Positions 9,025 through 29,452 of a stretch of DNA of 64,000 bases are shown in pieces. The stretch comes from Pseudomonadota bacterium (GTDB lineage: Bacteria; Desulfobacterota; DSM-4660; Desulfatiglandales; Desulfatiglandaceae), in contig JAZDES010000221.1 in assembly GCA_043808585.1 (NCBI GenBank), positions 11,380-75,379 of the forward strand. Reading direction: 5' to 3'. Both the position numbers and the translations under genes were made by a program. Each line of letters starts with the position of its first letter. The first letter of the stretch is position 1. The notes below the pieces were generated by a model. It searched no databases, was not told the origin of the DNA, and worked only from the letters and a program-made list of their open reading frames with translations.

Positions 9025-9036
9025 AAGATCGAAGGG

Positions 9037-9231
9037 TCAGCGCATGGGCTTCACAACCCGGCCTGATTTGATACAGCTTGTACAGGCCTTTATCCTCTTT
9101 GTCTGACCGTTTTGAACACACCTTACCGTCTGAAGATTTGGGTACCAGCGTTTCTTTGTCTTGTTATGGGCATGGCTCACATTATATCCGACCGTTGGTC
9201 TCTTGCCACATATATCACAAACTTTCGCCAT
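9037..9231 (-). CDS. rpmB: 50S ribosomal protein L28
   Basis: [29 protein letters not shown]... is typical of L28 in both sequence and length. Confidence 0.9.
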
Positions 9232-9376
9232 TAGGCTGTCTCCTTCTCAAGCGGATATTTAAACTTTAATATTTAGCTTGTATTGAGAAAAATATCAAGC
9301 ATTTTTTCGAGCGTGTCTGAAAAAGGGAAACCGTGCCCAGGTAAGCTGCCAGTAACCAATACGAAATTCATCAATC

Positions 9377-10942: not shown

Positions 10943-12316
10943 TTATTTTTCAAGGCCATATCTCTTCATTTTCCTCCAGAGGGAAACGCGGTCAATGCCC
11001 ATAGTCTTGGCCGCCTTGGTCTTATTCCCTTCGCATTTTTCCAGTATCCATTGTATATAATGTTTCTCCTGATCTTCCAGGCTGGGAATGGCAGAACGGG
11101 TGCGGCGGTAGGTCTCTATGGAGAGATTTCGGATGTAATCAGGAAGGTCGGCGACGAGAATAGAGGTCCCGTTTTCCAGGGCAACGGCCCTTTCAACGAC
11201 ATTTTCCAATTCTCTCACATTTCCAGGCCAGCCGTATTGACATAGTAGGTCCATTGCCTCCCGTTCGATTTCTCGGATGTCTTTTTTCATGGCTTGAGTT
11301 TTTTGAGCCAAGAAATAATTAGCGAGCAAGGGAATATCCCCGTTCCGGTCCGCTAGGGGTGGAAGCTGAATGGTGATTACATTGAGGCGGTAAAAAAGAT
11401 CCTGCCGAAAATAACCGTTTTTCACGTCTTCCTTGAGATCGCGGTGAGTTGCGGCGATGAAGCGTACATCCACGGGAATAGGGTCCACACCCCCTACACG
11501 GAGGAATGTCTTCTCCTGAATGACTCGCAATAGCTTTACCTGCATGGTCAACGGCATGTCACCGATTTCATCCAAGAATACCGTTCCGCCATCCGCCACT
11601 TCTATCAATCCAGCTTTTTCTTTGGTGGCCCCGGTGAATGCGCCTTTTTCATGACCGAATAGTTCATTTGCCATCAACTCTTCCGTGAATGATCCACAAT
11701 TAAATGCTATGAATCTTTTTTCCGAACGAGCGCTCAGATGATGTATCGCCTTCGCCACCAGCTCTTTCCCGGTTCCACTTTCGCCCAATATCAATACATT
11801 GATATCTGAGGAGGCAATCTGCTCAATGGTTTTTTGAACAGAGATCATTGCCTCGCTTTTCCCCACAATAAAGGGAACCCGTTGCATCTTTTTCAGCGAC
11901 TCTTTCAGTTCAAGATTTTCCAGAAGGAGCCTGCGCTTAGTGAGGGCCTCTTTTACAATTTTACGGACCTCATCGATTTTATATGGTTTGGCAATATAAT
12001 GATAAGCCCCCTCCTTCATGGCCTTTACCGCAGAATCAACGGTAGCATATCCCGTGATCATGATCACTTCCGTATGGGGCTGCAGTTCCCGGCTTTTCTC
12101 TAAAACCTGCATCCCACCCACCTTCTCCATCTTGAGATCCGTAATGACCAGATCGAAGGTTTTTGAATTGAGCATTTCTAGGGCCTTCATTCCGTTATCC
12201 ACAGAAATGACGCCATACCCCTCTTTTTTGAGGATATGCTCCAGATTCTTCCGTGCTATAGCCTCATCTTCCACAATAAGTATCATTTCTTCGGTATCTG
12301 CCAGCGCTCCTAACAT
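10943..12316 (-). CDS. sigma-54-dependent response regulator (REC + AAA+ + Fis-type HTH; NtrC family)
   Basis: The REC domain has DLVITDLKM and AKP. The AAA+ domain has GESGTGKE, the GAFTGA loop (EKGAFTGA) and the RVGG/ATHRDL blocks. The C-terminal HTH is [22 protein letters not shown]. Confidence 0.9.
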
Positions 12317-12363: not shown

Positions 12364-13884
12364 TCAATTGCCGTCTCTTATCGTGCTTCTCGGATCATGA
12401 AGGTGAATAGGCAAAAAGACGGTAAATGTTGTGCCCCTATCTTGTTTACTTTCAACTTGTATTCGACCTCCATGTTGTTCAATAATGCCATGGGTTATAG
12501 AAAGGCCTAAACCGGTGCCTTTCCCCACCTCTTTGGTGGTGAAAAATGGATCAAAGATTTTTGAGAGATCTTCTTCACGTATTCCTTTACCACTATCTTG
12601 AACCCTAAAACAGAGCTCTCCTTTGACTTCGTTTTTGCAGGTATAGATCTTCAGGACTCCCCCGTTTTCCATGGCCTGAACACCATTGAGGATCAGGTTG
12701 ACCAGGACCTGTTGGATTCGCCGAGGATCCAATTCTAACCGAATATCCTCCGGTACCTCAACCCTTAGTTCTACATTGGGCGGCATCTCACCCTTGATCA
12801 GTTTGAGGGTATCATCCACCAGGTCCTTAAAACGAACCTCTTTTAGGCTAAATGATCTTTCTCTGGAAAATTCGAGTAGTGCTTTTACAATATCCCTGGT
12901 CCTTTCTACCTGTTTTTCTGTTTCGACCAGTAGCTCTTTTTTGTATTCCAGGTTACCCTCTTCCAGTTCTTCGAGCAGGATTTGAACAGAAGTGGAGATG
13001 TTATTCAGGGGGTTGTTCAATTCATGGGCTACACCTGAAGTTAAGGTCCCTAGAGAAGCCAACTTTTTGGCCTGTACAAGCTGTTCGTTGCGTTTGTTTA
13101 GTTCGTCGATCATATTGTTCAAGCTGTTCACCAGAGATTCAAATTCGTCTCCGGTAGATATGGGAGGTATATTCGCGTAATCTCCCACGGCGATCTTGTG
13201 AATGGCATCCTCAATAGACTTTAAGGGGCGATTGACATTGAAGATAAAAAAGAGGACAGCAAAGATAGATAGGACAAAAATTCCCAACAGGGCCAAAAAG
13301 TGATAATTCCTCGATTCCCTGATGAGCTGATTCACATAGCGGCGCTCCTGGGTGAGGATGGCCTCCATATCCTCTGTAATTTTTTTGCCGACGCCTCTGA
13401 TGATCTCTTGGTGCTGTGAAAAGCCCTTAATCAGATCTTGGCTGATCTCGGGGGAGCCCCTTAGCTGATGGAGTTTGAGTAGAGTGGACAGGGCCTTTTC
13501 GTATTTTCGAAGGTCATCGAGTCTTTCTTCCAGATTCTTTGAGAGGGTGAACCGGCCATAATCGTGAATGATGTTGGTCAGTTTTTGTTCTCCCTTGCGC
13601 GCATAAGATAAGGCTTCTTCCAGATTCTTAGGTTCCATATAGAGGAAATAGTTTTTCTCGTATCGACGGGCCTCAAGAATAGTATTGAAAAGGTCATCTT
13701 TCTTTTCCAAAATCCGAAGTTTTTGATTCAGGAGGTGGTGTTTATAGTAGTTCAAAAACCACATGGATCCACCAAGGATCAGGAAAAGCGAGATAGCGAT
13801 AATGATCTTTTTTCTCATACTGAGCTTTATATTTGACCCTTGTAGCTTCTGCAAACAGTCATGGACTGATTTCACTAAAGGCAA
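12364..13884 (-). CDS. sensor histidine kinase (helical periplasmic sensor, TM, HAMP, HisKA, HATPase_c)
   Basis: The H-box is SGVAHELNNPL, the N-box LVNLILNGVQAM and the G-boxes QDSGKGI and GTGLGLSI. It sits immediately upstream of the NtrC-type regulator. Confidence 0.88.
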   Translation of the reverse strand: MPLVKSVHDCLQKLQGSNIKLSMRKKIIIAISLFLILGGSMWFLNYYKHHLLNQKLRILEKKDDLFNTILEARRYEKNYFLYMEPKNLEEALSYARKGEQKLTNIIHDYGRFTLSKNLEERLDDLRKYEKALSTLLKLHQLRGSPEISQDLIKGFSQHQEIIRGVGKKITEDMEAILTQERRYVNQLIRESRNYHFLALLGIFVLSIFAVLFFIFNVNRPLKSIEDAIHKIAVGDYANIPPISTGDEFESLVNSLNNMIDELNKRNEQLVQAKKLASLGTLTSGVAHELNNPLNNISTSVQILLEELEEGNLEYKKELLVETEKQVERTRDIVKALLEFSRERSFSLKEVRFKDLVDDTLKLIKGEMPPNVELRVEVPEDIRLELDPRRIQQVLVNLILNGVQAMENGGVLKIYTCKNEVKGELCFRVQDSGKGIREEDLSKIFDPFFTTKEVGKGTGLGLSITHGIIEQHGGRIQVESKQDRGTTFTVFLPIHLHDPRSTIRDGN

Positions 13885-13887
13885 TTA

Positions 13888-14748
13888 TCAATAATAATAG
13901 GGGAGGTCAATATCGCATATGGCGTCTTTAACGCCCGGGATCTTTTTCACGATTTGCAATATCTCCTTGGTCAAATCCTCTCTGATCTTTTCGCTAACTT
14001 GATCCTGCAAATTTGGGCTGGCAAAACCCGTTTTTTTGAGCCTCTGGGCCTTGACATGGATATGGACCACGCCATCATTTGCAGTCACTTCCGCTTCACA
14101 GACCTCTTGAATACCGGCCTGCACATGGCTACTCATGGCGAGATTATGGATAGCCTTTTCTGAATCCGAAGTTGCCTTGTAGGTATCACTTCTTGCTGCT
14201 GTGCAGATGATCTCGCAGGCATCCCGAAGCGTCAACCTCCCTATGCCTATATGCAAAACCATATCGTATAAGACTGGGTCACTCATATCGGCCTTAAAAA
14301 AATAGTGATTCCAATCAGCCCGTTCCCTGTCTTCCCTTTCAATAAATTTTATGGCTTCATCTCTGGATATATTCCTGTTTTTCTGTAGGAGAGCGATCCG
14401 GTCTTCCACTTCGGCAATCACCCGCACCTTCAGTACATGGGAGATTCCTGGAATGAGAACATGCCCTGCATAGCCATGATAGACGACGCTATCCTTCTTC
14501 ACATGTTCCAGCAAGGCTGCCTGGATGCAAGACAGAAACTTGTCCCTGGCGTGGGTTATTTTCTCTAAGATCGTAGGGGCATCATGAATGGAAGCCATCA
14601 GTTTCGCATCAGGGATATGAAAAAACTGAGAGGCCTCATCAATGACGACCTCCTGGCTCACACATTCGTAATTAAGGGTCCCCGCCACTCTCTCAGCGAT
14701 CTCCTGACCATGGCTGAAACATCCCCGCGAAATCGTTATTATCGCCAT
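13888..14748 (-). CDS. cytidylate-kinase-like family protein with C-terminal extension
   Basis: MAIITISRGCFSHGQEIAERVA... plus the VKVRVIAEVEDRI and RERADWNHYFF blocks resemble the Cytidylate_kin2-type family. Function is unknown. Confidence 0.55.
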   Translation of the reverse strand: MAIITISRGCFSHGQEIAERVAGTLNYECVSQEVVIDEASQFFHIPDAKLMASIHDAPTILEKITHARDKFLSCIQAALLEHVKKDSVVYHGYAGHVLIPGISHVLKVRVIAEVEDRIALLQKNRNISRDEAIKFIEREDRERADWNHYFFKADMSDPVLYDMVLHIGIGRLTLRDACEIICTAARSDTYKATSDSEKAIHNLAMSSHVQAGIQEVCEAEVTANDGVVHIHVKAQRLKKTGFASPNLQDQVSEKIREDLTKEILQIVKKIPGVKDAICDIDLPYYY

Positions 14749-14774: not shown

Positions 14775-16586
14775 TTAAATCCCATAGAAGAAATAGAGTA
14801 TGGAAAGCTCCACCGTTAAAAAGATCACGGTCATGATGGCGCCTGCTTTCGCATAGTCCACTGTGCGATATCCTCCGGGCCTCATAACCAGTGCATTGAC
14901 TTGGTGAGTGGGCAAAACGAAGGTGTTGGAAGCCGACAGTCCCACAACCAGCGCGGCCATCCGGGGATCTCCTCCGGCCATAACCGTCATATTCATACAG
15001 AGTGGGACCAGCAGGACAGTTGCCCCCACATTGGAAATCACAAGTGTGAAAAAAGAGGTCATGATGCCTACCACAGAAAGAAGCACAATGGGTGTGGGAT
15101 GGCCAAGCAATCCCAGGACCTTATGAGCAATGAAGGCCGCCGTCCCTGTTTTTTCAAAGGCAATTCCAAGGGGTATCAGTCCGGCCAATAGAAAGACGGT
15201 CATCCAATCCACAGCCCGGTATGCTTCATCCACTGAGAGCACGCCTGTGAGGATCATCCCCAATGCCCCGGACATGAGCGCAACGGAAAGCTGAACCTTA
15301 AAGAAAATGATCTGAAACAGGGCTGCCCCAAGCCAGAATATAGCAAGCTTGGCCTTATGGGGGCGCATAATTTCACCCTCAAGGGGGGTGGCAAAGGTGA
15401 GGGCTCTTGGCTGGGGGCGATTTTTCAAGATATGAAATCTCTCCCATGGCCCCTGCAGCAATAAGGTATCTCCCATTTGCATCCGGATACGTGTTAGGCC
15501 GCTATAGTATATCTTGTTGCCCTTGAATAAGGCCACAGGGTTGACCCCATAGAGTTCTTTGAAATTGATTTCGCTCATGGTTTTACCGATCAATTCCGAC
15601 CTAGGAGATACGACCGTTTCCGCCATTCCAGCGTTGGTTCGAGACAGAGTTTCGGCAAACACCTCAAGGCTGTCTTTTAGGCGCCAGCCATATTCGTCAA
15701 CAAGTCTCCGAATATTTTTCTCTCTTCCAACCACTGCAAGATCGTCATTTGCCTGGATTTTATCTGTACTACGGGGCACAAAGTTCTTCTCCTTTTTCTC
15801 TGAATGGCTGATGGCCACTACAGTTACGAGAAACCTTGCCCTGATGCCCAGTTCCTCCAAGGTCTTGGGGCCGCTGAAATTCCCTGATACGTGCAATTCA
15901 AAAATGGTATCCAGCGCTCGATATTCCTCAATCAAGGAAGCGGTGATCCCCTTGTCCGCTTCTCCTCCTCCACTCGGGAGGACAAATTTACCAAATATCG
16001 TAAAATATGCAATGGCGCTCACGAGCAGACATAGCCCTATTGGCGTCTGCGTAAATAGGCCAAAAGGTTCTAATTTTTTCCCTCCCAGCACCATCAGGTC
16101 GTTCAACAGGATGGTGGGACTAGCTCCCACCAAAGTGATGGTCCCCCCTATGATAGCGCAGAAGCCCATCGGCATAAGAATCCTGGATACAGGTACCTCC
16201 ATTCTCTTCGCGATACGTTGGGCCGCAGGCAGGAAAAGGGCGGCAGCTCCGATATTTTGCATCATACTTGAGATCAATCCAACGGTTCCGGAGACCAAGG
16301 TAATGACCCGTTTTTCACTCCTTCCTGCCAGTTTTATGATGGGGCCGGCCACCTGGTTCATCACGCCCGTCTTATCCAGCCCTGCTCCGATAATAATAAC
16401 CGCAATGATGGAACAAACCGCATTGCTGCTCAGGCCAACAAAGGCCTCCTTAGGGGAAATAAGGCCGGTAAGAGGGAGCAACACCATCATGATGATCCCC
16501 ACGACATCCACCCTGACCCACTCAAAGATAAAAAGAACAATCGCAAAGGCAAGTACCATCATCGTCAACAGCATTTCAGGCGTCAT
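14775..16586 (-). CDS. SLC13/DASS-family permease with two central TrkA-C domains
   Basis: Multi-TM halves flank two soluble RCK_C-like segments (GKTMSEINFKELYGVNPVAL...). The architecture is typical of this family. Confidence 0.8.
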   Translation of the reverse strand: MTPEMLLTMMVLAFAIVLFIFEWVRVDVVGIIMMVLLPLTGLISPKEAFVGLSSNAVCSIIAVIIIGAGLDKTGVMNQVAGPIIKLAGRSEKRVITLVSGTVGLISSMMQNIGAAALFLPAAQRIAKRMEVPVSRILMPMGFCAIIGGTITLVGASPTILLNDLMVLGGKKLEPFGLFTQTPIGLCLLVSAIAYFTIFGKFVLPSGGGEADKGITASLIEEYRALDTIFELHVSGNFSGPKTLEELGIRARFLVTVVAISHSEKKEKNFVPRSTDKIQANDDLAVVGREKNIRRLVDEYGWRLKDSLEVFAETLSRTNAGMAETVVSPRSELIGKTMSEINFKELYGVNPVALFKGNKIYYSGLTRIRMQMGDTLLLQGPWERFHILKNRPQPRALTFATPLEGEIMRPHKAKLAIFWLGAALFQIIFFKVQLSVALMSGALGMILTGVLSVDEAYRAVDWMTVFLLAGLIPLGIAFEKTGTAAFIAHKVLGLLGHPTPIVLLSVVGIMTSFFTLVISNVGATVLLVPLCMNMTVMAGGDPRMAALVVGLSASNTFVLPTHQVNALVMRPGGYRTVDYAKAGAIMTVIFLTVELSILYFFYGI

Positions 16587-16649: not shown

Positions 16650-16754
16650 CTATTCTGCCCGGTCCGTTTTTTTCCTATTTCCTTTTCTGAACCAGAAACA
16701 CAAAAGAAATGTAAAGACGATGAGTGCTAAAGAAAAATAGAAATGGGCGCCCAT
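16650..16754 (-). CDS. possible 34-aa single-TM mini-protein upstream of the SLC13 gene
   Basis: An internal ATG with a strong RBS (agggaggaaaaaATG) gives the product MGAHFYFSLALIVFTFLLCFWFRKGNRKKTDRAE. No homology evidence is available. Confidence 0.3.
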   Translation of the reverse strand: MGAHFYFSLALIVFTFLLCFWFRKGNRKKTDRAE

Positions 16755-16993: not shown

Positions 16994-17554
16994 CTATACC
17001 ATTGAATAGACAAACATCTCACGCCTTGGCCTTTCACCCTCCTCCGCCCTGTTGGCTATCTGTTCTTCCTCAGCCTCTGAAACCACAAACTCGATATCCT
17101 CATACTCTCGCTTTATCTCTTGAAGGGCCTCATCCGGTTCACTGAATTTGACGACATGGGAAAAAGAAATCCCCATTTTTTCGGCCTCTTCCTGAAATAC
17201 CCTGACGTTTTTTTTTGAGATATCCCGAAATTCCTCACAGAGCTTGTTTCTTGAAAATGAAAACAATTTGAAGCTCTCGCAGGAGAGGGGGGCAGTGTTC
17301 AGGGCCAATATCTCGTAGGACATCCTTGCGGCCATCTCCAGGGCATAATCGATGATCTCTCTGGAGAATGTGCCTTCCCTTCCAACAACGAGCAGCTTTG
17401 CAGGCGTTTCTTCAATCCTTTCTTCTTTGGTAATCAGGCCCGTGGCATGTTCCTGCTGGCCCACCTCGGCAAATGTGACGGCTTCATGGTATTGGTCCAT
17501 CTTGTCTGTAAGCCTGCGTGCCCTATTTGTTAATTTTCCAAACAGTCCGCTCAT
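16994..17554 (-). CDS. USP-like protein with N-terminal FAEAGE-type module
   Basis: The N-terminus carries YHEAVTFAEVGQQEHATGLI (nt 17432-17482). The remainder resembles a universal stress protein fold (LLVVGREGTFSREIIDYALEMA...DIEFVVSE). Confidence 0.6.
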   Translation of the reverse strand: MSGLFGKLTNRARRLTDKMDQYHEAVTFAEVGQQEHATGLITKEERIEETPAKLLVVGREGTFSREIIDYALEMAARMSYEILALNTAPLSCESFKLFSFSRNKLCEEFRDISKKNVRVFQEEAEKMGISFSHVVKFSEPDEALQEIKREYEDIEFVVSEAEEEQIANRAEEGERPRREMFVYSMV

Positions 17555-17558
17555 CTTC

Positions 17559-18116
17559 TTAGATCCTCCTCTCAGAATGTCTGCAATGATTTAGCGCTGG
17601 ATACTCCTTCATCATCACAATAGGAGTAGATAGGTTTTTCCTTATCTTTCTGGGCAGAATCTTTTTCTTTCTTCCCGTTGGAGCCTCCTTGCCTTCTTCC
17701 TCGGAAGCATCATAGATGGTAAGAACGATATCCCGATGATCATTCACATAACTCAAAATCTCTTGATCTGGACTTCCTGATCTCATCGTTAGGTGCCAGG
17801 GAATGCCTGCCCTTTTCGATTCAGGGAGCAATTGGTTGATATTCCTTAAGGCTTCGGCCTTCATCTCTTTCATCTCTTTAGCCATCTCATGCTCACCGGC
17901 CTCTGCAAAGGTAGCCGCAATCATGGCTCCTTCAATATACCTTTTGGCATGATGAGACCCTTGACGGACTTTTTTTGCGTACCGGCTATAGGTTCTCAGC
18001 CTGATGATCTGCAGGATATCAAGTTCTGTCTTAATGCGTTTGCAGAGTTCCACCGCATAGCTGAATACCCTTCTATCCGGTGTCATCCCGTCGATGGCCA
18101 GCAAGACCTTCTTCAT
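17559..18116 (-). CDS. universal-stress-protein-like protein with internal FAEAGE-type module
   Basis: MKKVLLAIDGMTPDRRVFSYAVEL... and ...DIVLTIYD...STPIVMM are USP-like. The insert AMIAATFAEAGEHEMAKEM lies at nt 17871-17924. Confidence 0.65.
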   Translation of the reverse strand: MKKVLLAIDGMTPDRRVFSYAVELCKRIKTELDILQIIRLRTYSRYAKKVRQGSHHAKRYIEGAMIAATFAEAGEHEMAKEMKEMKAEALRNINQLLPESKRAGIPWHLTMRSGSPDQEILSYVNDHRDIVLTIYDASEEEGKEAPTGRKKKILPRKIRKNLSTPIVMMKEYPALNHCRHSERRI

Positions 18117-18153
18117 CGCTCTTTTCCCCCTATTGTGGAACGGTCCACCACTT

Positions 18154-18339
18154 TTAGGCCCTTAGTACCGGACGCTGTTCTTCCCGTTTTATGACCCTAT
18201 ATTTGACCCGCTTTCGATTCTTCTTCCTTGGTGACTGGTTCATCATCTCCAGGGCGGTCTCCCGTTCTCCGGCCTGGGCAAACGTGGCCGCCATCATCCA
18301 TTGATCAAACGTATTAATCCTGGCTTTGATATTGAACAT
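18154..18339 (-). CDS. 61-aa mini-protein consisting mainly of the FAEAGE-type module plus a basic tail
   Basis: The product is MFNIKARINTFDQWMMAATFAQAGERETALEMMNQSPRKKNRKR... The start is moved to the second ATG (18339), which has an AGGAGG RBS 9 nt upstream. The ORF-track ATG at 18375 lies only about 5 nt after the -12 element of the sigma-54 promoter. Confidence 0.6.
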   Translation of the reverse strand: MFNIKARINTFDQWMMAATFAQAGERETALEMMNQSPRKKNRKRVKYRVIKREEQRPVLRA

Positions 18340-18380
18340 CTTAGATCGCCTCCTTTTTTGGACCTTTGTTACCATGGTTC

Positions 18381-18396
18381 AGCAATTTCTGTGCCA
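18381..18396 (-). promoter_or_regulatory. sigma-54 (-24/-12) promoter
   Basis: The minus strand reads TGGCACagaaaTTGCT, an exact TGGCAC-N5-TTGC consensus. It heads the operon 18339 to about 16994. Confidence 0.75.
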
Positions 18397-18695
18397 CCAT
18401 CTTAAAATAGTAGTGTATCCAGTTGATATCATTTATATATTGGCTATAAATGATGAAAATGAAAAATAGTGGCTGGTGTTACAATTTGCAACAAACGAAA
18501 GGGGATATTCCAATTATCTAACAATATTAATGCATTAATAACCATTACAAAAACAAATGAGATGTTTCGAAATGCAACGGAGGCAGACGTTTCGAGCTTC
18601 TGAGGGGTGAAGGGGATCCTGACTGCGCAACCCTTTGAGTTGCGATTCATCTTGAAAAGATTTATAGTCCTACCCATTTCAGAAGGAGTCACCAC

Positions 18696-20696
18696 ATGCG
18701 GATATTTAAGAAAAAAGGGGGGGAGCTTGAGGTAGTCACAGAGATAGGAGAGTTGAAGGATACGGTAAAGGACGCACATATGCCCGAGGATGTGGAAAAG
18801 GTGGCCCTAAACGAAATCGAGAGAATCGCTAAGATGGGTCCTTCTACTGCCGAATACACCATCGGGATGAACTACATCCACTACTTGGTGACCCTCCCGT
18901 GGAACAAAACGACCAAAGATCACTTAGATATTAAGACCGCCGAATCCATTCTTGATGACGCGCATTATGGCCTGTCAGAGATCAAAGATCGGATCGTAGA
19001 ATATTTGGCCGTCAGGGTATTAAAGGCCTCCCATAAGCACAGGATGCTGGTGGTGGATGATGAAAAGTTGACGAGAATGAACCTGGAACATGTCCTTACA
19101 AAGGAAGGATACCTTGTTCTTACTGCCGCCGACGGGGTCGAGGCCCTTGAGCTTCTGGAAGAAAACAGCTTTGATGTCATCTTGACTGATCTAAAGATGG
19201 AGAAGGTAGACGGAATGGGGGTCCTGGAGAAGGCCAAAAGTCTGAACCCCAATACGGAAGTGATTATGATTACGGGTTATGCCACAGTGCCTACAGCCGT
19301 TGAGGCCATGAAAAAGGGATCCTACCAGTTCCTTGCCAAGCCCCTCAAACTGGATGAAATCAGATCCAGCGTCCGAATGGCCCTATCTAAGAAAACGGCC
19401 CAATTAACCTCAAGAGGGCCGATTCTATGTTTTGTAGGTCCACCGGGTACCGGAAAGACGTCACTAGGAATGTCTATTGCACGTAGCCTTCACAGAAAAT
19501 TTATCCGTATCTCTCTGGGCGGGATGAAAGACGAGGCCGAAATAAGGGGGCATCGCAGAAGCTATGTGGGCGCCTTGCCCGGCAGAATAATCCAGGAAAT
19601 TCGCCGTGCCGAATCAAAAAACCCGGTCTTTATGCTGGATGAACTGGATAAGATCGGGCAGGATTTTAAGGGTGATCCAGCATCTGCCCTCCTGGAAGTC
19701 CTTGACCCAGAGCAGAATGCCCATTTCATGGACCACTATCTGGACGTGCCTTTTGATCTATCAAAGGTCATGTTTCTTGCCACGGCAAATACCGTTGATC
19801 CCATACCTGGCCCACTCCTGGACAGATTGGAGGTCTTGAGGCTTTCTGGGTATACCGAGCAGGAAAAGGAGCAGATCGCCTTCAGGTATCTTATCCCCAG
19901 AGAGATGGAGGAGGCTGGCCTTTCAGAGCACCCAGTTCAATTCACCCCTGATGCCGTCCACAAGATCATCAGGGAATACACCCGGGAAGCAGGTCTAAGG
20001 AACCTCCAGAGGCAAATCGCCGCCATATGCCGTAAAATGGCCAGGGACATTCTGTGCCAAGACGGAAAAGAAAGGACAGACCTGATCACCCCGGAGCTTG
20101 TGGAAACCTTGCTCGGGCCCCGAAAATTCTATTTTGAGGTTGCAGAAGCCAAGGAAAGAATAGGGGTCGCAACCGGGCTGGCATGGACGGAGACAGGGGG
20201 AGAGATCATATTTATCGAGGCCACAAAGATGAAAGGAAAAAACCGCCTCATCCTGACAGGTTCTCTTGGTGATGTGATGAAAGAGTCTGCTCGGGCGGCA
20301 TTGAGTTATATCCGAAGCAATACGGATCTATTTAATATTCCCGAAGACTTCTTCGATAACCATGACATACATATTCACGTCCCTGCCGGGGCCATACCCA
20401 AAGACGGTCCGTCGGCAGGCCTGACCATTGCTATCGCCCTGCTTTCACTGTTAACCAACCGTCCCAGCAGGAGAGATACGGCTTTGACAGGGGAATTGAC
20501 GTTGACCGGAAGGATACTTCCGGTCGGCGGAGTGAAAGAAAAAGTCCTGGCTGCCCATCGCGCTGGGGTAAAATCAGTGGTCTTTCCGGCCAAAAACGAG
20601 GCGGATCTCAAAGATATTCCTGATGATATAAAAAAGGATCTGGAAATCATTACGACAGATGAATTAGGAAAAACTGTTGATTTGGTTCTCAAGTAA
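18696..20696 (+). CDS. lon: Lon-family ATP-dependent protease lacking the N-terminal substrate domain and carrying an inserted receiver (REC) domain
   Basis: The Lon helical linker ([17 protein letters not shown]) is followed by a REC domain of about 120 aa (MLVVDDE...ILTDLKM...LAKP). Next come the AAA+ Walker [17 protein letters not shown] and Walker [10 protein letters not shown], then the Lon_C domain with the catalytic Ser (PKDGPSAG) and Lys (GGVKEK). An RBS (gaaggag) lies 8 nt before the ATG. Confidence 0.85.
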
Positions 20697-20952
20697 TCGC
20701 TCTGCCTGCATATCTCGCTGATATTGTCCGGGGCAATACTTTTAGATTCTTACACGTTCATTCTGAGAGTTCATCCCTCACGATCAATAATTGGTTGATT
20801 ATTCAGGATGTTGTAGAGAGCTCCTGCTTTCAGTGTTCAGGTTTCAGGAAGACGCCCCTGACACCTGAAACCCGAAATCTGTCACCTCATTGAGGGAGCA
20901 GAGCTCAAATTTCAAATATCTTTGGTTAGATATTTGCAAACACTTGGGTCGG

Positions 20953-21408
20953 TTACTTATCCTTGTCTCGCTCCAGGATTTCCTTAGCCGTCTTATAGTC
21001 GCCAGCTTCAGCAAAGGCCGCTGCTGCCATGGGGCCTTCGATCTTGCTCCTGTAAGCCTTTCTAATGGTCTGAACAAGCCTCTCAATCTCCACCGGTTTC
21101 TGGAGGTATTCAAAGGCACCCAAGCGGCGAGCCTCTTTTTCGTCTTTCTCCGTACCATGGCCCGTTAGAATGATGACCTGAACCTTGGGATAGGCCTTCT
21201 TGATCCGCCGAAGAACCTCCATGCCATCAATACCAGGCATCTTCAGGTCCAGCACCATCACATCGGGGACCTGATTATCAACGATCTTGAGGGCCTGTTC
21301 TCCGTTGAGCGCAATATCCGGCCCAAGATCCCGCATCTGAATCCGTTCGGCAAGCGTCTTTACAAATTCCTCTTCATCGTCCACCAGAAGGATCTTGATC
21401 TGTTCCAT
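20953..21408 (-). CDS. single-domain response regulator (REC) with C-terminal FAEAGE-type module
   Basis: It is a canonical REC (LLVDDEEEF, VMVLDLKMPG, ILTGHG, LQKP) followed by the tail GPMAAAAFAEAGDYKTAKEILERDKDK (nt 20974-21030). Confidence 0.85.
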   Translation of the reverse strand: MEQIKILLVDDEEEFVKTLAERIQMRDLGPDIALNGEQALKIVDNQVPDVMVLDLKMPGIDGMEVLRRIKKAYPKVQVIILTGHGTEKDEKEARRLGAFEYLQKPVEIERLVQTIRKAYRSKIEGPMAAAAFAEAGDYKTAKEILERDKDK

Positions 21409-21585
21409 TTCCTGCTCCTTAAAGAGAATTGATCTGTGAAGGGGACTCTCCCTATTATTCTAATGTATAAGCAATTACGTCGTGATGCAACATTTTTCCA
21501 ATGTCCGTGAATTGAAGCCCCCTACCGTGAGACTTCACCGAACTCAGTCGAACCATCTCTTGAAGCATTCGGTCACGGGTATGAA

Positions 21586-22131
21586 TCAACTGGCCTTTGT
21601 CCTTGAGGTTGTTGCTCCGGTTGGGAGGCCTTTTTCTTTGGGGAGGAATTCCCTGGCTATGTCCGGCTCACCTGCCTCTGCAAAGGTAGCGGCAACCATA
21701 ACGTCTTGATAACGTCGGAGCAATGACTTCTTTGTCTTTTCATTTTTCTTTTTTAGCCGGTATGCTTCCTGAATTCGCTCAGCCAGTGAATCCATGTTAA
21801 GGGGCAAAAAGACATCGTCAAAGGCGCCTAGCTTCATGCCTTCTATGGATAGTGAGAGGTACTCTGATGTATTTATGATGATAACTTCGGTGAGGGGGCG
21901 AATCTTCTTGATCCTTTCGAGGAGCAAAAGACCTTGCCGCTTCAGTCCATTTAGGCCCAGCAATACGACATCGATCTTTTTTCTCTCAAGTATCTTTCTG
22001 GCATCAGCTTGTTGCTCTGCTTCAAAGACCCGATACCTTTGGAGGCGGAGACGCCGAGACAGATTCAGACGAAATAGGCCATCCGCTTCTACGATCAAGA
22101 GATTGATTCCCATAAACACAAAGGGGGACAT
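21586..22131 (-). CDS. pseudo-receiver domain protein with C-terminal FAEAGE-type module
   Basis: The protein has a REC-like fold. The acidic pair reads VEAD, the phospho-acceptor position reads VVLLGLNG (Gly in place of Asp), and the conserved Lys position reads FLPL. The tail is VMVAATFAEAGEPDIAREFL (nt 21643-21702). Confidence 0.7.
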   Translation of the reverse strand: MSPFVFMGINLLIVEADGLFRLNLSRRLRLQRYRVFEAEQQADARKILERKKIDVVLLGLNGLKRQGLLLLERIKKIRPLTEVIIINTSEYLSLSIEGMKLGAFDDVFLPLNMDSLAERIQEAYRLKKKNEKTKKSLLRRYQDVMVAATFAEAGEPDIAREFLPKEKGLPTGATTSRTKAS

Positions 22132-22139
22132 TCCGAGAG

Positions 22140-22331
22140 TTAAACCCGTGCCAACCCATACGATACGCGAACGTTCGATAACCCCACCGTCTCCAAAAAG
22201 GTCTCTAAAGATTGATGCCTTTTTGGGGCTAGTCTCTTCCCCAAGAATTCCTTGGCCATTTCAGGACATCCAGCTTCTGCAAAAGCGACCGCTGCAAAGT
22301 CTCTTTCTATCCGTTTTAGCCATTTCTTCAT
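22140..22331 (-). CDS. 63-aa mini-protein with FAEAGE-type module
   Basis: The product is MKKWLKRIERDFAAVAFAEAGCPEMAKEFLGKRL... An RBS (caaggagga) lies 7 nt upstream. It is the first gene behind the sigma-54 promoter at 22384-22399. Confidence 0.6.
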   Translation of the reverse strand: MKKWLKRIERDFAAVAFAEAGCPEMAKEFLGKRLAPKRHQSLETFLETVGLSNVRVSYGLARV

Positions 22332-22383
22332 GACGTTGTCCTCCTTGCTTTGTTGGGTATAATGATTCTCTTTTCTTTCTTAA

Positions 22384-22399
22384 AGCAAAAGGTGCGCCA
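22384..22399 (-). promoter_or_regulatory. sigma-54 (-24/-12) promoter
   Basis: The minus strand reads TGGCGCaccttTTGCT, with correct GG-N10-GC spacing, about 50 nt upstream of the ATG at 22331. Confidence 0.65.
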
Positions 22400-22644: not shown

Positions 22645-23013
22645 TTATGTACCTTTTACGGCCTCCTGCATCTTCACAATTAACTCATCAAGCTTTAATG
22701 GCTTCATCAGATAATCAAAAGCGCCCAGGCGCATCCCCTCAATACCTTCTCTAGTGGATCCTCGTCCCGTCAAGAGAATCACAGGCAGCTGGGGATTTCC
22801 AACTTTGATAAGACGAAGGACTTCAAGCCCTCCCAAGCCTGGCATCAGCACATCTAAGACGACCACCTGAGGAGGGTCGGCCTCAATGAGACGCAATGCT
22901 TCTTCACCGGATGTCGCAGTCTTGACCTGAATCCCTCTCAGTTCGAGTCTTTCTGCGAGGGTTGTGACGAATTCCTCCTCGTCATCTACAAGTAACACCT
23001 TCCACTTATCCAT
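22645..23013 (-). CDS. single-domain response regulator (CheY-like REC)
   Basis: LLVDDEEEFVTTLAERL, VVVLDVLMPG, LLTGRG and LMKP are present, with a GGAGGAG RBS. Confidence 0.88.
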   Translation of the reverse strand: MDKWKVLLVDDEEEFVTTLAERLELRGIQVKTATSGEEALRLIEADPPQVVVLDVLMPGLGGLEVLRLIKVGNPQLPVILLTGRGSTREGIEGMRLGAFDYLMKPLKLDELIVKMQEAVKGT

Positions 23014-23031
23014 TTTACTCCTCCAGCCCTA

Positions 23032-23394
23032 CTAGGCCTCCGTTTTTCCCAGACCCTTCCGCCTATAAAGTATATCGCCCGCCCGAAGGGCGCCTTTTCT
23101 AAAATGCTCCAGCACAGATTCATAAGGACCGATCACCGAATCCAGAACCCTTACTCTTTTCCAAGTGATGTACTGATAATACTCCTCCTCTATGCCTCCG
23201 CAAATGACCAGCTGGACGCCTTCGGTGAGAATCAGGTGACAAAGTTGTTCTCCAGAGGCCTGAGGGAGCACCACCATCTTTTCATCAGTCTTCTCTCCCT
23301 TTTCATCCGTAGAAACAATAACTGCCTCTGTCGCCAAATCAAACCGTGGTGCTACCTCATTACCGTACAAAGGAATAAGCAATTTTTGAGACAT
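23032..23394 (-). CDS. NifB/NifX-family (dinitrogenase FeMo-cofactor-binding domain) protein
   Basis: EVAPRFDLATEAVIV...GVQLVICGGIEEE...RVRVLDSV match the Nitro_FeMo-Co fold pattern in both size and layout. Confidence 0.6.
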   Translation of the reverse strand: MSQKLLIPLYGNEVAPRFDLATEAVIVSTDEKGEKTDEKMVVLPQASGEQLCHLILTEGVQLVICGGIEEEYYQYITWKRVRVLDSVIGPYESVLEHFRKGALRAGDILYRRKGLGKTEA

Positions 23395-23501
23395 GAAGAA
23401 ACCTTACCTGAACTTTTCAGCTCCTTTTCTGTGTTTGATTCTCCTCTTGGAAGACCTGTCTGGACCCGCATCTGTCAGGTGCTCGTTTGAACCTATGGCG
23501 T

Positions 23502-24920
23502 TCATGAGCTTATCCCATACTCTTTCATTTTTCTCCACAGGGTGCTTCTTCCCCAACCCAAAAGGGCTGCGGCCTTGGTCCTCCGGCCTCTCGCCTTGAT
23601 GAGTGCTTCCATGATCATTTTCTTTTCAGTTGATGACCAGGTCTCTGTTTCCCATTTCCTTCTTAGATCCTCTACCCCTGGCTGCACGGAAATCGAGGCC
23701 CAATTCTCTCCGACCCCTCTCTCCTGGAGCTCAAGCCCCTTTTCTGTTAGATAGGTAGGAAGGTGTTTTGGATGAATGAGTCCTCCCTGGGAGATATTTA
23801 CTGCATATTCAATAATATTTCTCAGTTCTCTCACATTACCAGGGTAGTGGTAGTCCGACAGGATTCGAAGGGCCTTGCTCGAAAACCCTCCAATATCCTT
23901 TTTGAATTGGGTGGCGAAGGTGTTGAGAAAGTGATCGATCAGGAGCCTGACGTCGTCATCCCGCTCTCTCAGGGGAGGCAGGTGAAGACGGACTACGTTG
24001 AGCCTGAAGAGGAGATCTTCCCTGAAACCTCCGTCTCCAACCATTTGTTCAAGGTTTCGGTGGGTTGCGGCGACAATTCTCACATCAGCCTGAAAGCCCC
24101 TAGTACTCCCCAATGGATAGATCACCCTGTCATCCAGGAAGGTCAGCAGTTTGACCTGGAGGGAGGGAGGGAGGTCACCGATTTCCGTAAGATAAAGCGT
24201 GCCATGGTGGGCCAGACGAAATCGCCCCGGTTTGTTCTCAACGGCCCCGGTGAAGGCCCCTTTCTGGTGCCCGAAGAGCTCTGATTCCAGCAAGGTTTCA
24301 GGTAATGCCCCGCAATTGAGCTTGATAAAAGGCCCCTTGGCCCTGCTTGAGGCCTGGTGAATTGTCTCTGCAACCAGGTCTTTGCCCGTACCGGTCTCAC
24401 CGGTGATGAGTACAGAAGAATCGCTCTGGGCAAGAACAGGGAGAATCTGAAAGATCTTTTCGATTTGTGGACTCTTGCCGATCAGAGGTCCAAAACTATA
24501 GGCTTGCCCGGTCTTTCCCTCCAGCCTGCGAAGGGGACGCATGTCTTCTACCGTTTCCAAAAAACCGACTAACTCACTTTCAATGTCTTTGAGGGGGGCC
24601 ATCGTAATACGTACAGGAATTTTCTGGCGGGCGCGGTTGATGAGGTCGCTTTCAACACACGGCGGTTCAGCTTCTGCGTTTAGATTCAAGGCAGGGCAAC
24701 CTTGGACGCATATCCTGTTTCGTAGGACATGATAACAGGGAATGCCCCGGGCTTCTTCCCTGGAAAATCCGGTGAGAGCTTCCAAGGCTCGATTCAAGAA
24801 GATGACCGTGCGCTCCACATCAAGCACCACGACACCAAGAGGGATTTCATCAACCAGTGAGCGGAAGGCAACGGGCAGAGAAAAGAGCCCTATGACTTCT
24901 GGCAAATGGCTCGTGTACAA
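23502..24920 (-). CDS. sigma-54-dependent transcriptional activator with N-terminal PAS domain and Cys-rich segment
   Basis: A PAS-like N-terminus carries CYHVLRNRICVQGCP...PPC. The AAA+ domain has GETGTGKD and GAFTGA (QKGAFTGA). The C-terminal HTH is KAAALLGWGRSTLWRKMKEYGI. Confidence 0.88.
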   Translation of the reverse strand: MYTSHLPEVIGLFSLPVAFRSLVDEIPLGVVVLDVERTVIFLNRALEALTGFSREEARGIPCYHVLRNRICVQGCPALNLNAEAEPPCVESDLINRARQKIPVRITMAPLKDIESELVGFLETVEDMRPLRRLEGKTGQAYSFGPLIGKSPQIEKIFQILPVLAQSDSSVLITGETGTGKDLVAETIHQASSRAKGPFIKLNCGALPETLLESELFGHQKGAFTGAVENKPGRFRLAHHGTLYLTEIGDLPPSLQVKLLTFLDDRVIYPLGSTRGFQADVRIVAATHRNLEQMVGDGGFREDLLFRLNVVRLHLPPLRERDDDVRLLIDHFLNTFATQFKKDIGGFSSKALRILSDYHYPGNVRELRNIIEYAVNISQGGLIHPKHLPTYLTEKGLELQERGVGENWASISVQPGVEDLRRKWETETWSSTEKKMIMEALIKARGRRTKAAALLGWGRSTLWRKMKEYGISS

Positions 24921-25322: not shown

Positions 25323-26285
25323 ATGATACAATCCGCGAAGACATGGTTCACGGCTTTGTTGAGCATCCTCTTATTTTTTGCTTTGGCATGTGCTGTAGGT
25401 GCAACAGAACTGTCTCAAACTCCTGAAGCCTCGGCCCCTATGCATCCTTGGTGGTTCTGGCCTCTAGTCTTGCTGATTGTAACCTTTTTGATGGGTATAT
25501 TCGCCGTTCTTGGCGGGGTTGGAGGAGGTGTCCTGTTCGTTCCCATCATCAGCGGATTCTTTCCTTTCCACCTGGACTTCGTCCGCGGGGCAGGGCTGCT
25601 AGTGGCCCTCTCCGGGGCCCTAGCCGCCGGGCCCGGCCTTCTCAAAATGAACCTAGCGAGTCTCAGGCTTGCCATCCCGGTTGCCCTCATTGCCTCAACC
25701 TGTGCCATAATTGGGGCCATGATCGGGCTGGCCTTGCCCACCAACATTGTGCAGATTTCTCTGGGAGGCACCATCGTCGGTATCTGCGTGCTCATGTTGA
25801 AAGCAAAGAAGTCAGAGCTCCCTGATGTACCAGAGGCGGATAGACTTTCTTCGGCACTCAGGATCTACGGAGTCTACCAGGAGAGGAGTACGGGAAAGAT
25901 CATCGACTGGAAAATCCACCGGACTCCGCTGGGTCTGGGTTTATTTATTATGATCGGTATTATGGCCGGCATGTTTGGCCTAGGAGCAGGCTGGGCAAAT
26001 GTGCCCGTATTGAACCTCCTGATGGGAGCACCTTTGAAAATCAGCGTGGCGACCAGTAAATTTCTGCTATCCATCACGGACACCTCCGCCGCCTGGATCT
26101 ATATGAATCAGGGATGCGTCATCCCCATGATGGTAGTGCCTTCCCTGGTGGGAATCATGCTTGGCTCCTTTGTAGGCGTCCGGCTTCTCGCCATGGCCAA
26201 ACCCGGTGTTATCCGGTGGATCGTGATCGGAATACTGGCCTTTGCCGGTATAAAGGCCCTTTTAAAGGGCTTGGGTGTAGGATAG
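25323..26285 (+). CDS. TauE/SafE-family (sulfite/anion exporter-like) membrane protein
   Basis: It is a polytopic membrane protein with repeated GGVGGGVLFVP and GLGAGWANVP-type glycine-rich helices typical of the family. Confidence 0.7.
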   Translation: MIQSAKTWFTALLSILLFFALACAVGATELSQTPEASAPMHPWWFWPLVLLIVTFLMGIFAVLGGVGGGVLFVPIISGFFPFHLDFVRGAGLLVALSGALAAGPGLLKMNLASLRLAIPVALIASTCAIIGAMIGLALPTNIVQISLGGTIVGICVLMLKAKKSELPDVPEADRLSSALRIYGVYQERSTGKIIDWKIHRTPLGLGLFIMIGIMAGMFGLGAGWANVPVLNLLMGAPLKISVATSKFLLSITDTSAAWIYMNQGCVIPMMVVPSLVGIMLGSFVGVRLLAMAKPGVIRWIVIGILAFAGIKALLKGLGVG

Positions 26286-27679: not shown

Positions 27680-29452
27680 GTGATTGAAGGACGAAAACCT
27701 CTAAGGTTTGCATGGGATATGTCAATACGTGTGAGACTGAAACCGAAATTCTGGGACTACCACGATGCAGCGGCAGGCCCGTACAAACCTCTGTTCAATT
27801 TCCGCCGAATCTGGAAGATGGCAGTCCTCCTTACGTCCGGCGTGGTTCTCTTGCCGCTGATTTTCATAACTGTTGTTGACTACCTCGTGACACAACATGC
27901 CATAGAGTCCGAAATCCTCTTGCGCACTGCTCGGCTCGTCTCCAATACCCGCCGGACCTTCTCTTACTTCCTGGATGAACGCATGGCCGCACTAGATTTC
28001 ATTGACAGGGACAACACGTTCGAAGCGCTGAACGATCCGACCCGGCTTGCCACTATCCTGGAAAACCTGAAGAAGGGGTTTGGTGGATTTGTGGACCTCG
28101 GAGTGATAGATTCCCTGGGCAGACAGAGGACCTATGTGGGGCCATACAGGCTTGAAGGAAAGAACTACAGCGAGCAGGAGTGGTTTAAACACGTCTTAGA
28201 CCGAGGCGTGTACATCAGCGATGTGTTCTTAGGGTTCCGGAACGTTCCGCATCTTATCATTGCAGTCAAGCACAACCGGCCAGACGGCTCCTTCTATTTG
28301 CTTCGGGCCACCCTGGATACCGAGCGCTTTAAGGATATTCTCTCAAGACTTGAGGTGAGCGGGCTGGGTGATTTCTTTATCATCAACCGGCAGGGTGCGC
28401 TCCAGACTCCGTCCCTTTACCATGGCAAGGTTTTCGAAAAGCTCTCATTGCCCGTACCAGAATACGCACCGGAAACTCGCGTGTTCGAATGGAAAAACGC
28501 CGAAGGGCCCCCCCTCATTATCGGATACAGGTATATTGAAGATACCCCTTTTATCCTTATGGTGGTCAAACAGAAAGAGGCGCTCATGAGGCCCTGGTAC
28601 GAGACCCGCATGAAACTTATCGGGTTTCTTGCTGCCAGCATCGTCGCCATTCTGATAGTGATCTTGGGCGGGACAACCTATCTTGTGGATCAGCTCTATG
28701 AGGCGGACCAGAGGCGGATCACAACCCTGCACCAGGTGGAATACTCCAACAAGTTGGCCTCCCTCGGCCGATTGGCAGCGGGCGTGGCCCACGAGATCAA
28801 CAACCCACTGGCCATTATCAATGAGAAGGCGGGACTTATTAAGGATCTTTTCACGCTCAAGGATGACTATGCTAAGGACCAGAAGCTGGTAGGTCTGGTT
28901 GGTTCAGTGTTGACGTCTGTGGAGCGGTGTGCGACCATCACCAGGAGACTTTTGGCCTTTGCGCGGCACATGGAGACAAGCATCAAGCAACCGATCAACT
29001 TGAGGGACCTCATCCATGATGTACTCGGCTTTTTGGCCAAGGAGGCAGAGTATAGATCCATTTCGGTCACCGTAGATGTGCCCGACAACATCCCTCAATT
29101 CGAAAGCGATCGAGGCCGGCTGCAACAAATTCTTCTCAATATATTCAATAACGCCTTCGCGGCCATGAGCGACGGTGGGCGTCTTGAGATTACTGCCAGA
29201 GCCGAGGATAAGAACTTTGTTTCGGTCTCGATCGCAGACAACGGATGCGGAATCCCTGAGGAAGACCTCAAACGCGTCTTTGAACCGTTTTTTACCACCA
29301 GAGCAAACAAGGGCGGGACAGGTCTCGGCCTATCCATTACATACGGTCTCGCCGAGGAACTGGGGGGGAGCATTAGCGTAAAAAGCGAGGTGGGGAAGGG
29401 AACGACTTTCATCGTTTTTTTGCCGCTTATCAGGGAGAAAAAGGAAGGCTGA
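27680..29452 (+). CDS. sensor histidine kinase with extracytoplasmic Cache-like domain
   Basis: Two TM segments flank a sensor of about 270 aa. The H-box is AAGVAHEINNPL, the N-box LLNIFNNAFAAM and the G-boxes ADNGCGI and GTGLGLSI. The exact start (GTG at 27680 or a downstream ATG) is uncertain. Confidence 0.85.
   Translation: MIEGRKPLRFAWDMSIRVRLKPKFWDYHDAAAGPYKPLFNFRRIWKMAVLLTSGVVLLPLIFITVVDYLVTQHAIESEILLRTARLVSNTRRTFSYFLDERMAALDFIDRDNTFEALNDPTRLATILENLKKGFGGFVDLGVIDSLGRQRTYVGPYRLEGKNYSEQEWFKHVLDRGVYISDVFLGFRNVPHLIIAVKHNRPDGSFYLLRATLDTERFKDILSRLEVSGLGDFFIINRQGALQTPSLYHGKVFEKLSLPVPEYAPETRVFEWKNAEGPPLIIGYRYIEDTPFILMVVKQKEALMRPWYETRMKLIGFLAASIVAILIVILGGTTYLVDQLYEADQRRITTLHQVEYSNKLASLGRLAAGVAHEINNPLAIINEKAGLIKDLFTLKDDYAKDQKLVGLVGSVLTSVERCATITRRLLAFARHMETSIKQPINLRDLIHDVLGFLAKEAEYRSISVTVDVPDNIPQFESDRGRLQQILLNIFNNAFAAMSDGGRLEITARAEDKNFVSVSIADNGCGIPEEDLKRVFEPFFTTRANKGGTGLGLSITYGLAEELGGSISVKSEVGKGTTFIVFLPLIREKKEG

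Follow-up and report, generated by a model that had tools for sequence, protein, structure and literature searches.

Known general-stress systems and the window

The closest described counterpart of the locus analyzed here is the "three-component" general-stress system of Desulfovibrio vulgaris Hildenborough, DVU3298-DVU3305 (Rajeev et al. 2011, PMC3333781; Kazakov et al. 2015, PMC4641369; Trotter et al. 2023, PMC10102598). Its response regulator (RR), DVU3305, binds at two operons: its own and the divergent DVU3302-3298, whose products are membrane, hypothetical, and UspA-type proteins (PMC3333781; regulon table in PMC4641369). The genes are induced by high pH, heat shock, and stationary phase, and orthologs occur in Thermodesulfovibrio, Thioalkalivibrio, and Dechloromonas (PMC3333781). 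In transposon fitness data, DVU3303-3305, encoding a Lon protease, a histidine kinase (HK), and the RR, show pairwise cofitness of >0.9 (PMC10102598). Here, we describe a short peptide module shared by six proteins encoded around a related Lon gene in a 64,000-nt stretch of contig JAZDES010000221.1 from a Desulfatiglandaceae bacterium, referred to below as the window. The shared module and the module-only mini-proteins (minis) go unmentioned in the papers on the DVU system (PMC3333781, PMC4641369, PMC10102598), and a full-text literature search with the motif string and "REC-Lon" names returned nothing relevant.

The window resembles the D. vulgaris system in several ways. First, it also has a REC-containing Lon (REC-Lon), an HK, and a sigma-54-dependent REC activator. 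Second, its divergent sigma-54 operon, operon 1, includes a mini, two USP-like genes, and a CitMHS transporter gene. Third, the module is found in Thermodesulfovibrio and Thioalkalivibrio lineages, as are the DVU orthologs. One difference is that the window Lon is a single divergent gene, whereas DVU3303-3305 are described as one operon. Judged by gene content, operon 1 together with the REC-Lon, the HK, and the REC enhancer-binding protein (EBP) is a system of the published DVU3298-3305 type, a point that the preliminary description of this DNA had not remarked on. We refer to it as system A.

A second sigma-54 operon with module genes, operon 2 or system B, lies on the other side of the REC-Lon gene. 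The preliminary description had presented the two operons as bracketing Lon, which is indeed their arrangement in the window. However, the two are separately conserved, and their proximity is a local coincidence: operons 1 and 2 are two separate module-using systems that happen to be juxtaposed here.

A conserved TPR-like module

A six-frame scan of the window with the regular expression [AV][ATV]FA[EQ][AV]G gave exactly six matches, all on the minus strand (17459-17479, 17895-17915, 18268-18288, 21001-21021, 21670-21690, and 22269-22289), compared to 0 in 50 shuffles of the window and 0 expected by chance. All six fall within the coordinates and open reading frames (ORFs) in which the same segment had been noticed earlier. 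A 30-column hidden Markov model built from unrelated family members outside the window scored these copies at 52.6, 50.7, 41.5, 36.1, 33.0, and 15.5 bits, with the rest of the window at noise level, and each of the six proteins has one copy. The lowest-scoring copy reads FAEVGQQ and is found in a 186-aa protein. It is genuine, because orthologs of this protein in two related loci, L084 and L087, carry the motif at the equivalent site (ITLAEAGQ and ITFAEAGE, respectively). The DNA-level likeness reported for two of the copies held over a 33-nt core (30/33) but not over 60 nt, where the identity (42/60) is about that expected from identical residues and common codon usage. A recent DNA-level duplication of the copies is not supported, since the identity is limited to the 33-nt core.

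The module is ~30 residues long. Among 182 instances from species-representative genomes, its core is h-x3-[FLI]-E-x-[ILV]-[MF]-x-A-[IVA]-[TA]-F-A-E-A-G-E-[HF]-[ED]-T-A-[RK]-E-[IL]-[LM], in which A(-3), F, A, E, G, and A(+9) are each 94 to 99% conserved across phyla and E-8, E+2, and E+5 are nearly invariant acidic residues. A metal site of the E-x-x-E-H type was considered and rejected; the His is conserved in just 41% of instances, and Phe is found at this position in 35%. No model in Pfam or NCBIfam covers the module, in line with the earlier remark that it could not be assigned to a described domain, and none of the PADLOC anti-phage defense models matched the four module proteins examined.

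Several features point to a tetratricopeptide repeat (TPR)-like unit. AlphaFold2 (AF2) modeled each module copy as two helices, of 13 and then 9 residues, joined by a 3-residue A-G-E turn, with a predicted local distance difference test score (pLDDT) of ~83; in a tandem mini, the helices span residues 7-19 plus 23-31 and 43-55 plus 59-67. In proteins with more than one copy, the distance from one copy to the next peaks sharply at 34 residues, which is the TPR period. When the top 144 representatives are sorted by copy number, 42 fall into the single-copy group, 81 into the two-copy group, and 21 into the group with at least three. Multi-copy members also give sub-threshold matches to TPR_4/6/12/14 in a consistent and expected register. 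None reached a Pfam TPR gathering score, the best being a TPR_4 match of 24.8 bits against a threshold of 27 (P0254). Alignment with CTPR3 by hhalign gave the expected register at a probability of just 0.8%, and a Foldseek search with the tandem-mini model found nothing at E<1, its weak matches being mostly TPR and PPR proteins. Against the TPR pattern, A8, F11, A20, and [IL][LM] at 23/24 agree, and position 27 is charged. A ribbon-helix-helix (CopG/ParD) antitoxin was rejected as a candidate, the best PDB match (5ceg, E=0.15) covering the second helix only.

The module is therefore predicted, from its AF2 helix-turn-helix, its 34-residue period, and its sub-threshold matches, to be a diverged stand-alone TPR-type unit of helix-turn-helix form, much as the single TPR-like hairpin first proposed; by profile score, it is outside the membership of every curated TPR family. 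With the TPR families (TPR_1, 2, 4, 6, 12, and 14) it shares the helix-turn-helix unit, the 34-residue tandem period, the G15-[DE]16 turn, and, less clearly, small or hydrophobic residues at positions 7, 8, 11, 20, and 24. It differs from them in three respects. First, the module is usually present as a single copy, whereas TPR domains require at least three in a superhelical array. Second, its signature A-x-x-F-A-E-A-G-E is far more conserved than that of an ordinary TPR. Third, it is found as an insertion in, or a tail on, USP, REC, and PPDK folds.

The family is large, with more than 1,000 small or stress-related members in anaerobic bacteria. A motif profile run against 5.8 billion proteins gave 1,951 clusters at 90% identity (E<=10), and an exhaustive HMMER search with the mini-protein alignment found 1,601 clusters at 50% identity with E<=1e-3, 304 of them with E<=1e-10. 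The best matches were nearly all "hypothetical proteins" of 53 to 86 aa, and most of the family are minis of 55 to 61 aa. The best matches come from Desulfobacterota, Nitrospirota (Thermodesulfovibrionia), Acidobacteriota, and a few gammaproteobacterial metagenome-assembled genomes, so that the module is conserved in orthologous loci across phyla.

A set of 80 related loci around mini-protein homologs contains 180 module ORFs, typically 2 to 4 per locus, and in 70 of the 80 loci at least two of them lie within 10 kb. When the larger host proteins were classed after masking of the module, 63 had an N-terminal module followed by a USP-like domain, both USP-like proteins of the window among them; 20 had the module inside a USP-like domain; and 7 were receivers with a C-terminal module, including both window receivers. 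A further host is a PPDK_N/PEP-utilizers enzyme of 888 aa, in which the module interrupts the sequence at residues 193-216; the rest were tandem-module proteins and a few more. The number of copies ahead of one and the same USP-like domain varies from 1 to 4, and stand-alone module proteins are minis of 55 to 100 aa. The claim that the segment is portable on unrelated folds thus applies more widely than to the window, with N-terminal, internal, and C-terminal positions on USP-like, REC, and PPDK-like proteins as well as modules on their own.

Two side observations concern these hosts. PPDK_N/PEP-utilizers enzymes of ~870 to 890 aa recur in L024 (13776-16448, minus strand), L038 (3593-6271, minus strand), L086 (6989-9613), and L168 (16674-19280); in L024 and L038 the module is inserted in the ATP-grasp part (residues 193-216), and in L086 the gene lies between those of REC-Lon and a mini. 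In L091, a 60% GC contig, a 244-aa USP-like protein encoded divergently from REC-Lon (8909-9643, minus strand) contains AAAAFAERN... and LSLAEAGETDLAREIL, two degenerate modules with a long Pro/Ala-rich linker between them, which shows that degeneration of the module has occurred in some lineages.

Linkage to REC-Lon and candidate roles

The window REC-Lon (18696-20696, plus strand) consists of a short helical N-region, a REC domain, an AAA+ module, and an S16 protease, and it is analogous to DVU3303 (PMC3333781). Pfam and NCBIfam models identified Response_reg, AAA, Lon_lid, and Lon_C domains, with REC inserted ahead of AAA+, and detected no LAN N-domain. Its phospho-site is intact, with residues that are invariant in an alignment (A5). 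In PADLOC, the protein matches BrxL over the protease domain only.

REC-Lon and the module co-occur in both directions. A REC-Lon of the window architecture lies within 10 kb in 36 of the 80 module loci and in 17 of the 30 loci with full flanks, with a median gap of 272 nt to the closest module ORF. In the reverse test, a metagenome scan with the REC-Lon N-part yielded 5 true REC-Lon loci and 75 canonical Lon loci. Module ORFs were adjacent in all five of the former compared to 0/75 of the latter (783 kb; Fisher p ~4e-8). L085 is a minimal pair, in which a tandem mini is convergent with REC-Lon; there is no further module gene nearby, and neither an EBP nor an HK was found within 10 kb. One carrier set, that of system A, is thus specifically linked to REC-Lon. 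An apparent REC-Lon-module fusion in L088 (251-2215), which would have counted as Rosetta-stone evidence, was rejected. There, REC-Lon (N-region, REC, and AAA+) runs directly into a mini, its frame being interrupted within the protease domain, and the Lon C-terminus is on the opposite strand; the contig is probably an assembly chimera, or else it has an inversion spanning convergent genes.

The same data bear on whether the module has a common function at all. A generic TPR fragment, or a low-complexity Ala-rich helix of repeated origin, would have none, and the profile does weakly catch one ordinary TPR protein (P0362). However, it has 0 matches in the 783 kb of control loci, its core is 94 to 99% conserved across phyla, it is kept in 102 of 102 orthologs of a REC protein, and its synteny is strong. 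This specificity and conservation effectively refute the reading already, and its remaining probability is negligible.

Another explanation is that REC-Lon recognizes the module itself, which would serve as a degron or docking tag in place of the missing N-domain logic. No pairing of modules would be needed, and every module protein would be a direct client or regulator. The reciprocal co-occurrence, the L085 pair, a Lon that has no substrate-binding N-domain, and a core conservation exceeding the needs of a structural hairpin would all fit. On the other hand, the system B cassette has three module proteins with Lon not nearby, and the copy number of 1 to 4 and the 34-residue tandem period suggest packing of unit on unit. 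We regard direct tagging as unlikely.

The opposite explanation is that the hairpins stack only with each other, assembling USP-like proteins, receivers, and minis into hetero-oligomers, and that REC-Lon is merely co-regulated with them. It would account for the 70 of 80 loci with at least two module proteins, the TPR-like tandem period, and a trio cassette that occurs without Lon. In addition, both operons are under the control of one RR in D. vulgaris (PMC3333781), and the synteny would follow from that. It does not sit well with L085, where a mini is all there is beside Lon, with the contrast between REC-Lon and canonical Lon loci in the reverse test, or with the AF2 models, in which packing between modules is not confident. 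Assembly without a part for Lon therefore seems improbable to us.

The module is also linked to sigma-54 promoters, as had been proposed. A scan of 2.15 Mb of related loci for TGGCAC-N5-TTGC with at most one mismatch found 89 sites, of which 42 (in 35 loci) are <=400 nt upstream of a module, compared to 3.1 expected, an enrichment of ~13-fold. In the window, a mini opens each operon behind a sigma-54 box (18382-18396 and 22385-22399, both minus strand), just as first described, and an AAGGAGG-type ribosome-binding site precedes each mini-ORF. In Nitrospirota (related loci L008-L082), the putative sigma-54 -12 element is mostly TTGA or TTGT rather than TTGC (TGGCACG-N4-TTGA), and scans with the TTGC consensus therefore undercount promoters.

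This position recalls PspA and PspF, where a sigma-54 operon is headed by a gene whose product inhibits the activator of that operon. Here too, a small helical protein comes first behind a sigma-54 promoter in a stress regulon, but the minis are not homologous to PspA, and the module is also found on USP, REC, and PPDK proteins. By analogy, the module might bind the sigma-54 activator (an AAA+ ring) or the HK, such that first-gene minis would act back on their own promoter in the style of PspA on PspF, while the kinase would hold module-tagged receivers on a tether. In both systems, a mini gene is the first one behind the sigma-54 promoter, 47 of the 80 loci have an EBP, and both window systems have an EBP and an HK while only one has Lon. 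Nevertheless, the EBP sensory domains differ (REC versus PAS), the USP-like and PPDK-like carriers are left unexplained, and L085 has no EBP or HK within 10 kb. We consider such feedback docking very unlikely.

The model that we tentatively favor, and that we rate as not quite an even prospect, combines elements of these explanations: the module may be an association handle, and module-only minis may tie its carriers to REC-Lon. The binding partner is inferred from synteny. Module copies would pair like TPR units, in cis when in tandem and in trans among co-encoded proteins. Such module-module packing is suggested by the 34-residue cis period, the several carriers per locus, and the Lon-less trio cassette. 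In system A, module-only minis would connect the module network to REC-Lon, a protease that has no N-terminal substrate-binding domain of the usual kind and that phosphorylation of its receiver probably switches. The constant module of the mini would bind the module of a client, and its variable, mostly basic, disordered tail may engage the protease as an adaptor or a pseudo-substrate. Stress-induced USP-like proteins and receivers would then be removed or held in check after the signaling change.

Such a role is comparable to that of AAA+ protease regulators and adaptors, which include LarA and HspQ for Lon; CpdR, RcdA, and RssB for ClpXP; and SspB. The likeness is that these are small dedicated proteins co-encoded or co-induced with the protease, that they have a folded handle and a disordered tail, and that proteolysis is under phospho-receiver control. 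The difference is that they have no sequence similarity to the module proteins and that in the window system the receiver is built into Lon and the putative handle is common to many co-encoded proteins.

Several points weigh against the combined model. First, the AF2 model of the tandem mini has no confident packing between its two modules (predicted template modeling score, 0.37). Second, the co-occurrence can be explained by co-regulation in one regulon instead of physical contact. Third, Lon is not an obligatory neighbor, because REC-Lon is absent from the surrounding 10 kb in 13 of the 30 full-flank loci and none was found within 10 kb of the system B cassette in L167-L169; the tie between module and Lon that the preliminary description had proposed therefore stands as co-occurrence with REC-Lon in both directions, but not as a relation to Lon only. 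Fourth, the reverse test rests on five REC-Lon loci, the probable chimera L088 among them. Fifth, the presence of REC-Lon correlates weakly with tail type (35 of 62 for basic tails versus 15 of 37 for others). Finally, the near-invariant E-8, E+2, and E+5 go beyond the needs of plain TPR stacking, and a different, basic ligand may account for them.

That last point leads to a further alternative, in which the acidic face of the module (E-8, E+2, E+5, and E+7) would, by analogy with TPR domains, bind a basic peptide, such as the tails of the minis or a C-terminal LRA. Binding of C-terminal peptides is classic for TPR domains, which recognize EEVD or SKL ends. The near-invariant acidic residues would fit, as would the tails themselves: these are mostly basic, with a median net charge of +5 over ~25 aa, and an LRA-like tripeptide is near the C-terminus in 98 of 117 minis. 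Against this, one hairpin is too small for a TPR groove, and many minis have tails that are not basic. We consider this highly improbable.

The gene systems and their significance

Operon 1 of the window is matched gene for gene by L084. Its sigma-54 -24/-12 promoter (TGGCACAGAAATTGC; 18382-18396, minus strand) is a perfect TGGCAC-N5-TTGC. The first gene (18154-18339, minus strand) encodes the 61-aa mini, with one module (50.7 bits) followed by a basic tail ending in RPVLRA (P0012), and L084 has its ortholog at the matching position. The ATG at 18339 is the right start, because the longer, 73-aa ORF starts under the promoter. Most system A minis (P0006-P0122, and the window mini at 18154-18339, minus strand) have [LM]-R-A at the C-terminus or within ~10 residues of it, in tails of ~25 aa with ~35% Lys plus Arg. 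This ending could be a terminal recognition signal.

The mini gene is followed by the two USP-like genes. The 185-aa protein (17559-18116, minus strand) is a USP protein with the module (33.0 bits) inserted at aa ~60-90 (nt 17871-17924); its PF00582 match of 33.8 bits, against a threshold of 24, spans the insertion. The 186-aa protein (16994-17554, minus strand) has the degenerate N-terminal module (15.5 bits) followed by a divergent USP-like domain. It has no Pfam match; it clusters by BLAST with N-module USP-like proteins, and the multi-module relatives P0246 and P0260 score ~20 bits for Usp. Of the two hosts described earlier as USP-like, the 185-aa protein is thus confirmed by PF00582, whereas the case for the 186-aa protein is weaker and is made by these links.

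Further downstream are genes for a CitMHS/TrkA_C anion transporter (14775-16586; Pfam) and a cytidylate-kinase-like protein (13888-14748; PF13189), both also found in L084. They are followed by a HAMP HK (12364-13884; HAMP, HisKA, and HATPase_c) at the same position as in L084 and analogous to DVU3304, and by the REC-sigma-54 EBP (10943-12316; Response_reg, Sigma54_activat, and HTH_8), analogous to DVU3305 (PMC3333781). All of these are on the minus strand. A small membrane protein of 31 to 34 aa is conserved between the 186-aa USP-like gene and the CitMHS transporter gene in both loci (window 16650-16754, minus strand, MGAHFYFSLALIVFTFLLCFWFRK...; L084 11485-11580, MNAHFIYSMALILFAFFLCFWYRN...), and it may be a small transporter subunit.

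System B is conserved as a cassette with the order PAS-sigma-54 EBP, Nitro_FeMo-Co-like protein, receiver, sigma-54 box, mini, pseudo-receiver, and receiver with tail. In the window, its upstream part (22645-24920, minus strand) comprises the PAS-sigma-54 EBP (23502-24920), the Nitro_FeMo-Co-like protein (23032-23394), and the stand-alone receiver (22645-23013), all identified by Pfam and in a gene order kept in L167 and L169. The Nitro_FeMo-Co-like protein, with a dinitrogenase cofactor-binding fold, is likewise encoded between EBP and receiver in L167 (8030-8383) and L169 (8149-8511), and it may be the ligand or redox sensor of system B. A TauE exporter (25323-26285, plus strand) and a dCache HK (27680-29452, plus strand), both Pfam matches, are encoded nearby; such genes often accompany the cassette and adjoin it in L167-L169.

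The operon 2 promoter (TGGCGCACCTTTTGC; 22385-22399, minus strand) reads TGGCGC-N5-TTGC, with one mismatch, and L169 has a perfect box at the equivalent place. Of the three genes behind it, all of which are module-bearing in L167-L169, the first (22140-22331, minus strand) encodes the 63-aa mini, with one module (52.6 bits) and then a conserved C-terminus, FLETVGLSNVRVSYGLARV; relatives are found in L167 and L169. This C-terminus is one instance of a second element of system B minis, [FL]L-x2-VGL-x2-V-x-[VI]-x-Y-G/V-x-A-x-[VI], which has no family match and is unlike the basic LRA tails of system A. It was seen in the window mini (22140-22331, minus strand), P0004, P0005, P0018, P0025, P0036, P0254, L167 (8857-9072), and L169 (9112-9411).

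The other two genes of the trio encode, as first described, a pseudo-receiver and a canonical receiver, each with a C-terminal module. The pseudo-receiver (181 aa; 21586-22131, minus strand; Response_reg 50.8 bits, module 41.5 bits; orthologs in L167 and L169) has, by its sequence, lost its phospho-site, with DD replaced by EA, the acceptor D by G, and K by L. The canonical receiver (151 aa; 20953-21408, minus strand) scores 101.7 bits for Response_reg and is a member of a large family. The module is kept by 102 of 102 close relatives, and forms of ~250 aa are fusions of the two receiver genes that are adjacent in the window. In its AF2 model (pLDDT 88, predicted template modeling score 0.80), a single helix at residues 108-134 is followed by a turn and a helix at 138-150, so that receiver helix alpha-5 runs on without a break, as a rigid extension, into helix 1 of the module. 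From this continuity and from established receiver biology, we infer that the module would be mechanically coupled to the phosphorylation-responsive face of the receiver.

In this comparison with described systems, the regulatory framework and the TPR-like fold class are already known. The novelty lies in recognizing one single-repeat module, sharply conserved, as the hallmark of a large unannotated family of minis and as an addition to USP-like, receiver, and PPDK-like proteins of these systems, and in the specific association of this module with REC-Lon. A bolder proposal, which we consider rather doubtful, is that the minis are a new class of small-protein adaptors, or degrons in trans, for a phospho-switchable, N-domain-less Lon, with the single TPR-like repeat as a "Velcro" code. 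If true, any carrier, be it a USP-like protein, a receiver, or a PEP-utilizing enzyme, would pair with a mini whose disordered tail feeds the complex to the protease, and the two-component signal would decide the production of one set of stress proteins, through sigma-54, as well as their removal, through REC-Lon.

The finding names more than 1,000 "hypothetical" small proteins and offers a testable role for them, and it does the same for the so far unexplained extensions that USP-like proteins and receivers carry in sulfate reducers, Nitrospirota, and their relatives. It indicates that mini-ORFs heading sigma-54 operons can be real, conserved proteins. With a conserved, putative docking module beside an N-domain-less Lon, the substrate choice of such a Lon becomes directly testable. 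Finally, it would supply a missing piece for the DVU3298-3305 system of D. vulgaris, which is published and genetically tractable but mechanistically unexplained.

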